A DNA stretch of 64,000 bases from Escherichia phage vB_EcoM_PTE-Eco15. A program made the position numbers and the translations under genes. The notes below the pieces were generated by a model that saw only the letters and a list, made by a program, of their open reading frames with translations, had not been told where the DNA came from and ran no database searches. Location of the stretch: the sequence record PQ352352.2; one strand, written 5' to 3'. Positions 61,335 to 62,332 of this stretch are shown here, piece after piece; positions within the stretch are counted from its first letter, which is position 1, and every line of letters begins with the position of its first letter.

Positions 61335-62332
61335 ATGTTTAAAAAGTATAGCAGTCTTGAAAATCATTACAACTCTAAATTTATTGAAAAACTTTATAGC
61401 TTGGGATTGACTGGTGGGGAGTGGGTAGCTCGTGAAAAGATTCACGGCACAAATTTCTCATTGATTATTGAGCGTGATAAAGTAACTTGCGCTAAACGTA
61501 CTGGACCAATTCTTCCTGCTGAAGATTTCTTCGGTTATGAAATTATTTTAAAGAATTACGAAGATTCTATTAAAGCTGTCCAAGAAATTATGGAAACTTC
61601 AGCTGTTGTGACTTATCAAGTTTTTGGCGAATTCGCTGGACCTGGCATTCAGAAGAATGTGGCGATAAAGATTTTTATGTATTTGACATTATTGTCACTA
61701 CCGAAAGTGGTGATGTAACTTATGTTGATGATTACATGATGGAATCGTTTTGTAATTCATTTGGGTTTAAAATCGCTCCACTTTTGGGTCGTGGTAAATT
61801 TGAAGATCTTATTAAACTTCCAAATGATTTGGATTCTGTTGTTCCGTCTTATAATTTTACCGTAGATAATGCAGGTTTAATTGACGCTAACAAATGTGTT
61901 TGGAAAGCTGAAGCCAAAGGCGAAGTATTTACCGCTGAAGGATATGTATTGAAACCTTGTTATCCTTCTTGGCTGCCTAATCGCAATCGTGTAGCCATCA
62001 AATGCAAGAATTCTAAATTTAGTGAAAAGAAAAAGTCTGATAAGCCTATTAAAGCTAAAGTTGAACTGTCAGAAGCTGATAACAAATTGGTGGGGATTTT
62101 AGCTTGTTACGTTACACTAAACCGAGTAAATAACGTTATTTCTAAAATTGGCGAAATTGGTCCAAAAGATTTTGGAAAGGTGATGGGACTAACTGTTCAA
62201 GATATTTTGGAAGAAACTTCTCGTGAAGGTATTACTCTAACTCAAGCGGATAATCCTTCTTTGATTAAAAAGGAATTAGTTAAAATGGTACAAGATGTAC
62301 TTCGTCCGGCTTGGATTGAATTGGTAAGTTAA
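61335..62332 (+). pseudogene. rnlB: RNA ligase 2 (Rnl2) reading frame interrupted by a frameshift near 61660-61670; two ORFs 61335-61718 and 61736-62332
   Basis: N-terminal ORF carries ligase motif I (EKIHGTNFS) and reads ...GPGIQKNV before going out of frame; the downstream frame reads back through [29 protein letters not shown]... and continues to the normal C-terminus. Confidence 0.7.

Follow-up and report, generated by a model that had tools for sequence, protein, structure and literature searches.

The gene for RNA ligase 2 (rnlB) appears as two open reading frames (ORFs) in the stretch of Escherichia phage vB_EcoM_PTE-Eco15 DNA analysed here (64,000 nucleotides, referred to as the window). 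This raised the question of whether the gene is inactivated, is misrepresented by a sequencing error, or encodes two domains that are expressed separately; a sequence-only reading of the locus had put forward all three outcomes. The window comes from a Tequatrovirus (T4-like) genome. Over 25 kb its closest matches were BASEL phage Paracelsus, Yersinia phage fPS-2, and Escherichia phage EC128 (96-98% identity), and the phage collection held no record identical to it. The genes around rnlB were found in the order inh, hoc, 24.3, 24.2, rnlB, and gene 24, with the last on the opposite strand, and the same order is present in T4 and phage Lutter. The rnlB gene itself shared 99.0% nucleotide identity with that of Lutter when seven gap columns were counted, and the flanking 24.2 and 24 genes also matched. 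The length of rnlB was 998 nt in the window and 1005 nt in all close relatives. The native start is preceded by a Shine-Dalgarno sequence, GAGGA, within TTTTGAGGATTAATT upstream of the ATG. The intrinsic terminator between the convergent rnlB and 24 genes is intact, and the equivalent position in Lutter is annotated as a terminator. The coordinates of these and the other features are collected in the table.

We examined the two ORFs by comparison with intact homologues. They lie in different frames, 17 nt apart, and the division of the gene described by the sequence-only reading was thus reproduced. The N-terminal ORF aligned to residues 1-109 of T4 Rnl2 (PDB 1S68/2HVQ) with a phmmer E value of 3e-68. 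It contains motif I (KxHGxN) with the adenylylated Lys35 in EKIHGTNF at residues 34-41, aligned to the motif of the T4 structures, so the earlier assignment of the motif I lysine to this ORF was correct. The remainder of the ORF, 18 residues followed by TAA, was non-homologous, as had also been stated. With the intact Paracelsus Rnl2 as the tblastn query, residues 1-109 matched 61335-61661 in frame 3 (98% identity) and residues 112-334 matched 61661-62329 in frame 2 (94.6% identity). Translation of the second frame from 61637 confirmed the earlier observation that it already encodes Rnl2 upstream of its first ATG, and showed that it reaches the normal C-terminus ending in AWIELVS. Since both halves were 94-99% identical to intact Tequatrovirus alleles of a well-characterised protein, the split is not a chance pattern.

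The sequence-only reading had placed a short deletion with a -1 shift near 61660-61670 and had suggested an alignment to T4 as a check. Alignment of the junction region to T4, Lutter, EH2, BYEP02, and Paracelsus, all of which are intact at this point, located the event there and showed that exactly 7 nt are missing. With the lost nucleotides in brackets, the context reads AGAATG[TTGATTA]TGGCGATAAAG (AGAATG[TTGATTA]TGGCGAT), and the gap can be placed at either of two positions one T apart (61659/61660 or 61660/61661). The deletion takes out codons D110 and Y111 along with one base of codon 112, and a loss of 7 nt amounts to a -1 shift. The spacer between the motifs flanking the junction was 4 nt in the window, 11 nt in 17 other fetched rnlB loci, and 13 nt in one locus (L004) that is considered below.

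Table. Positions of rnlB, its parts, its neighbours, and other features of the window (position 1 is the first nucleotide of the window)
Feature	Coordinates	Strand	Remarks
hoc	59340-60755	+	upstream of 24.3
24.2	61047-61325		immediately upstream of rnlB
Shine-Dalgarno GAGGA	61324-61328	+	native rnlB start; read directly
rnlB N-terminal ORF	61335-61718	+	127 aa; ATG at 61335
rnlB codons 1-109, native frame	61335-61661	+	motif I (K35), Ia (R55), III (E99)
Quasi-palindrome GCATTC-AGAA-GAATGT	61645-61660	+	adjoins 5' edge of deletion; 6-bp hairpin in RNA fold
Deletion junction	61659-61661	+	TTGATTA/TGATTAT missing after codon V109; from alignments with five intact-junction relatives
Out-of-frame tail of N-terminal ORF	61662-61718	+	18 unrelated codons and TAA; no homology in PDB alignment
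rnlB codons 113-136	61662-61735	+	codons from 61664 in -1 frame; motif IIIa F119/D120; no start codon ahead
Slippery tetramers A_AAG (61667-61670) and T_TTT (61673-61676)	61667-61676	+	frame-overlap zone; read directly
rnlB C-terminal ORF	61736-62332	+	198 aa, Rnl2 M137-S334; motifs IV, V (K225, K227) and C-terminal domain
Intrinsic terminator GGGACC-GAAA-GGTCCC and T-run	62340-62363	.	between rnlB and 24; read directly
Gene 24	62362-63645	opposite to rnlB	convergent with rnlB
gp37/gp38 equivalents (distal long-tail-fibre/adhesin region)	10373-14348	-	
nrdA	28186-31354	+	ORFs 28186-29619 (residues 1-449 and tail) and 30365-31354 (residues 452-754)
ORF between nrdA pieces	29665-30375		236 aa, HNH/I-HmuI-like homing endonuclease
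alt2 remnant (second alt-like ADP-ribosyltransferase)	47208-47597	+	stop at codon 6
segE-like GIY-YIG homing endonuclease ORF	57983-58600	-	205 aa; between uvsW and inh

The consequences of the deletion depend on where it falls in the enzyme. In T4 Rnl2, the N-terminal adenylyltransferase domain can perform steps 1 and 3 and the C-terminal domain is needed for step 2, the isolated N-terminal domain (residues 1-249) keeps partial activity, and no biological role has been found for the enzyme (PMC3884662). The catalytic motifs are I (K35), Ia (R55), III (E99), IIIa (F119), IV, and V (K225, K227) (PMC3149579). In an intact allele, Pfam assigned PF09414 to residues 29-226 and PF18043 to residues 246-322. 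The break at residue 109/110 cuts the nucleotidyltransferase domain at its middle, with motif III on one side and motif IIIa on the other, and is well away from the domain boundary at about residues 243-249. The N-terminal ORF covered only positions 2-80 of the 171 in the PF09414 profile, i.e. under half, and the C-terminal ORF matched only PF18043 (T4_Rnl2_C, E = 3e-24), with no PF09414 match. The window therefore resembles T4 Rnl2 (gp24.1, rnlB; PDB 1S68, 2HVQ-2HVS) in its locus between 24.2 and 24, its Shine-Dalgarno sequence, and its terminator, and its DNA still encodes motifs I, Ia, III, IIIa, IV, and V together with the C-terminal domain. Unlike in T4, this coding sequence is spread over two frames and no polypeptide has the full motif set; PF18043 is not fused to the nucleotidyltransferase domain and stands in a separate ORF from the motif I fragment.

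Translation of the second half was assessed from its possible starts. After the stop at 61571, the first ATG, GTG, or TTG in the downstream frame was the ATG at 61736, which corresponds to M137, and residues 110-136, including motif IIIa, are therefore left untranslated by ordinary initiation. No Shine-Dalgarno motif of the GGAG/GAGG type was present in the 25 nt upstream of this ATG (TGATGTAACTTATGTTGATGATTAC). Initiation at the normal start would be expected to yield 127 residues carrying motifs I, Ia, and III. Motifs IIIa, IV, and V and the C-terminal domain would be missing from this fragment, which should be unable to form the nucleotide-binding pocket. The 198-codon ORF, having no ribosome-binding site, would be translated at best in traces by reinitiation, and residues 110-136 would not be made at all. 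Judged from the structure-function literature, the phage would lack RNA ligase 2 activity.

We next determined how widely the lesion is distributed. Of the 467 phage records that span the junction in a megablast search, none matched it without a gap, and the best identity was 81/88. The junction was absent from E. coli genomes by megablast, and from viral and metagenome contig collections when searched as a 30-mer and with variable-spacer patterns. The viral contig search has little power, since only 5 wild-type copies with these flanks were present there. A single genome-contig match, in a Flavobacteriia MAG with an 8-nt spacer, was rejected as a chance AT-rich match outside any rnlB. In each of ten contigs encoding an identical gp24.2, rnlB was intact (334-335 aa) and the spacer had its normal 11 nt. 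Exact-protein look-up returned no record for the product of the N-terminal ORF or for the Hoc protein of the window. Homologues of intact Rnl2 were numerous: the search returned over 100 clusters, about 330-341 aa in length, with identities reaching down to about 53%. The dN/dS ratio between intact rnlB alleles was 0.07-0.09, which indicates that rnlB is normally maintained by selection. Apart from the deletion, the rnlB allele of the window matched the intact Lutter allele except for three synonymous substitutions, all in codons 27-29, and showed no difference after the break. From this near-identity, the event is either very recent or an artefact.

The best reading of these results is an ordinary private loss-of-function lesion or an assembly error, and not a split enzyme, a recoding site, or a conserved feature. 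Within it a real mutation was favoured over an artefact, and we infer that the deletion is biological and not an assembly error. The window would then probably carry a null allele of rnlB, generated by a 7-bp deletion at codons 110-112 that is very recent in this lineage and perhaps occurred during laboratory propagation. Among the three outcomes raised by the sequence-only reading, inactivation of the gene was accordingly the best supported, a sequencing error was less likely, and separate expression of the domains was not supported. Rnl2 is probably accessory and dispensable, to judge from the absence of a known role, and this would explain how the phage survives without it. The strong purifying selection on intact alleles suggests that loss is costly in nature, and therefore the allele may be transient or a product of laboratory propagation.

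An artefact of sequencing, assembly, or consensus calling would mean that the real phage has an intact 1005-nt rnlB. Several results are in line with this explanation: the lesion was unique among about 470 related genomes, the allele was otherwise nearly identical to an intact one, and the gene is under purifying selection. In addition, two records with a split rnlB, EH2 and BYEP02, look like low-quality assemblies, and their breaks lie elsewhere. However, the context of the deletion is neither homopolymeric nor repetitive. Loss of 7 nt outside a homopolymer is an untypical base-calling error, errors of this type being typically 1 nt in homopolymers. The reading frames of 121 Paracelsus ORFs (70 aa or longer) were also compared with those of the window. 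Only rnlB and nrdA matched collinearly in two frames, and rnlB alone had no insertion. Since rnlB is the sole true frameshift among about 120 ORFs, the 64-kb window shows no general tendency to indel errors. Moreover, the disruptions of nrdA and alt2 in the window are real polymorphisms, common to 34 and about 90 other genomes, respectively. On balance, an artefact was considered possible but doubtful.

The alt2 remnant differs from Paracelsus bas36_0031 by an internal deletion of about 1.69 kb in addition to its early stop. It is common to about 90 records, and in the fPS-2 annotation it is described as 'similar to N-terminal of Alt'.

Ribosomal slippage was considered as a means by which the phage might still make the enzyme. 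Both frames are open over 145 nt (61574-61718), and the shift required to join them is -1. Two of the tetramers most prone to -1 shifting in E. coli, A_AAG and T_TTT, are located 2-5 codons past the junction (PMC4066793), and they are the only conceivable sites near the junction for low-level restoration of the frame. A slip at A_AAG would give QKNVAIKDFYVFD and a slip at T_TTT a similar product. Slippage here would swap only about D110-D113, and a near-full-length active Rnl2 could result. Against this, no slippery heptamer (X_XXY_YYZ) was found close enough to the junction for a slip to restore function. No stimulator was present 5-9 nt downstream of the tetramers; the nearest stable hairpin (61693-61715) lies 17-23 nt downstream of them, and folding of the 61640-61760 RNA gave no significant score (z = -1.5). 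No Shine-Dalgarno-like stimulator was seen upstream of the tetramers. In E. coli, -1 tetramers without a stimulator shift at about 0.15%, compared with a background of about 0.11% (PMC4066793). The two-frame arrangement was seen in 0 of the 467 phage records and in 0 of the 10 contigs with the identical neighbouring gene. Because the deletion is private to the window sequence, no recoding signal can have evolved around it. Programmed -1 sites such as those of dnaX, IS3/IS911, and the phage tail chaperone G/GT resemble rnlB in having overlapping frames related by -1, and A_AAG and U_UUU tetramers do occur in the rnlB overlap. Unlike these sites, rnlB lacks both a heptamer and a stimulator at the correct spacing and shows no conservation of the arrangement, and its two frames result from a private deletion, the gene being one ORF everywhere else. 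Restoration of an active enzyme by slippage was therefore judged very improbable, and a trace of near-full-length protein is expected at most.

Sporadic disrupted rnlB alleles were also found in other assemblies, and they speak for the preferred reading of an ordinary loss. The gene is split at about codon 97 in UTI-E4, at about codons 86-93 in vB_Eco_EH2, and at about codon 68 in BYEP02, as well as in several Logan contigs. Like the window, UTI-E4, EH2, BYEP02, and Logan contig SRR13760421_237 contain an N-terminal PF09414 fragment and a C-terminal fragment, with each allele occurring in one assembly, but none of them has the 7-nt deletion of the window. In the protein database, at least about 12 other truncated rnlB products were identified, with breaks near codons 56, 65, 70, 84, 85, 90, 97, and 152.

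One of these alleles falls close to the site in the window. Exact look-up of the 198-aa product of the C-terminal ORF returned a single match, in contig SRR13760421_237 (locus L004). At L004:1672-1708 the contig has TATGGGGCGAT in place of TATGGCGAT, owing to a +2 (GG) insertion in codon 112 at a distance of three codons from the deletion in the window. The insertion produces the same net frame and the same 198-aa ORF as in the window. This phage and the window diverge at 3% of positions. Its rnlB is T4-like in the 5' half and Lutter-like in the 3' half, which places a recombination junction near the indel. These findings raised the possibility that codons 110-112 are a mutational hotspot or a site of selected inactivation, e.g. 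as an escape from a host system, such as a defence or a nuclease, that detects Rnl2 or cleaves at the site. Such a site would explain why two unrelated T4-like phages differ in their indels (-7 and +2) and share the resulting frame. A small quasi-palindrome adjoins the site, and codon 112 is polymorphic (TGT or GGC/GGT). On the other hand, the roughly 12 other breaks are scattered, and the chance that one of them falls within 3 codons of the window site is about 0.5. The insertion allele was found through its exact C-terminal product, and a search of this kind favours breaks that lie upstream. In 467-469 phage genomes neither of the two alleles was seen again, and the insertion was unique among 469 phage records. 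With truncations so many and so scattered, the coincidence is unremarkable. A hotspot was dropped as unproven, about a dozen truncated alleles being spread over codons 56-152, and we consider it highly unlikely.

The mechanism of the deletion itself is a matter of conjecture. The quasi-palindrome at its 5' edge may have promoted it. With GTT or GTC as the ancestral codon for V109, microhomology at the flanks would be limited to 1 nt. A TGG(N4)TGG direct repeat would require an ancestor with GTG at V109, and GTG was seen at this position in two of the loci (L008 and L011).

Finally, we asked whether rnlB might be a functional gene in pieces, with the two ORFs translated separately and either assembling into an active ligase or having roles of their own. 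Both ORFs are intact and unmutated, Rnl2 1-249 alone is partly active (PMC3884662), and a true case of a divided gene, nrdA split by a homing endonuclease gene, is present in the same window. Gene-in-pieces arrangements of the nrdA type share with rnlB the presence of one enzyme gene as two adjacent ORFs on the same strand. In other respects rnlB differs from them. It contains no inserted endonuclease or other intervening mobile element. Its ORFs do not each have their own start and ribosome-binding site, since the C-terminal ORF lacks a Shine-Dalgarno sequence, and they do not together encode all essential segments, as residues 110-136 with F119 of motif IIIa are in neither product. The split at residue 109 is in mid-domain and does not coincide with the point where the N-terminal fragment (1-249) meets the C-terminal domain, and the N-terminal ORF covers under half of the PF09414 profile. 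The rnlB arrangement recurs in no other genome, compared with 34 genomes for the nrdA split. For these reasons the earlier suggestion that the two domains are expressed separately found no support, and a functional gene in pieces has hardly any likelihood. Origin of the rnlB split from an intron or homing endonuclease was rejected outright, as nothing is inserted and the gene is shorter than in relatives, not longer.

In nrdA, which encodes the large subunit of aerobic ribonucleotide reductase, no group I intron was detected by Rfam at the split, and the layout recurs in 34 of 514 related phage records. Splitting of nrdA by a mobE-type HNH gene has been described for Aeromonas phage Aeh1.

Returning to a disabled rnlB as the preferred reading, the gene is best annotated as a frameshifted pseudogene or flagged for resequencing, instead of being entered as two 'RNA ligase' coding sequences. 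If the lesion is real, the phage would be a natural Rnl2-null strain that can be compared with near-isogenic relatives carrying the Lutter-type allele. Such a comparison, for instance on hosts equipped with RNA-damaging defences, could probe the biological role of the enzyme. Beyond annotation the lesion has little significance.

Other differences between the window and its relatives were recorded during the analysis. The Hoc protein is 471 aa in the window and 376 aa in T4 and Lutter, and its greater length suggests an extra Ig-like repeat; Hoc of 471-472 aa is also encoded by Paracelsus and several metagenomic contigs. The segE-like ORF matched Pfam PF19835 and PF01541; T4 has this ORF at the same site, whereas it is absent there in Lutter and Paracelsus. 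The distal long-tail-fibre and adhesin region was mostly unalignable to that of Paracelsus, with only the first 97 residues of gp37 aligning (59% identity), and this divergence is the usual T-even host-range mosaic.
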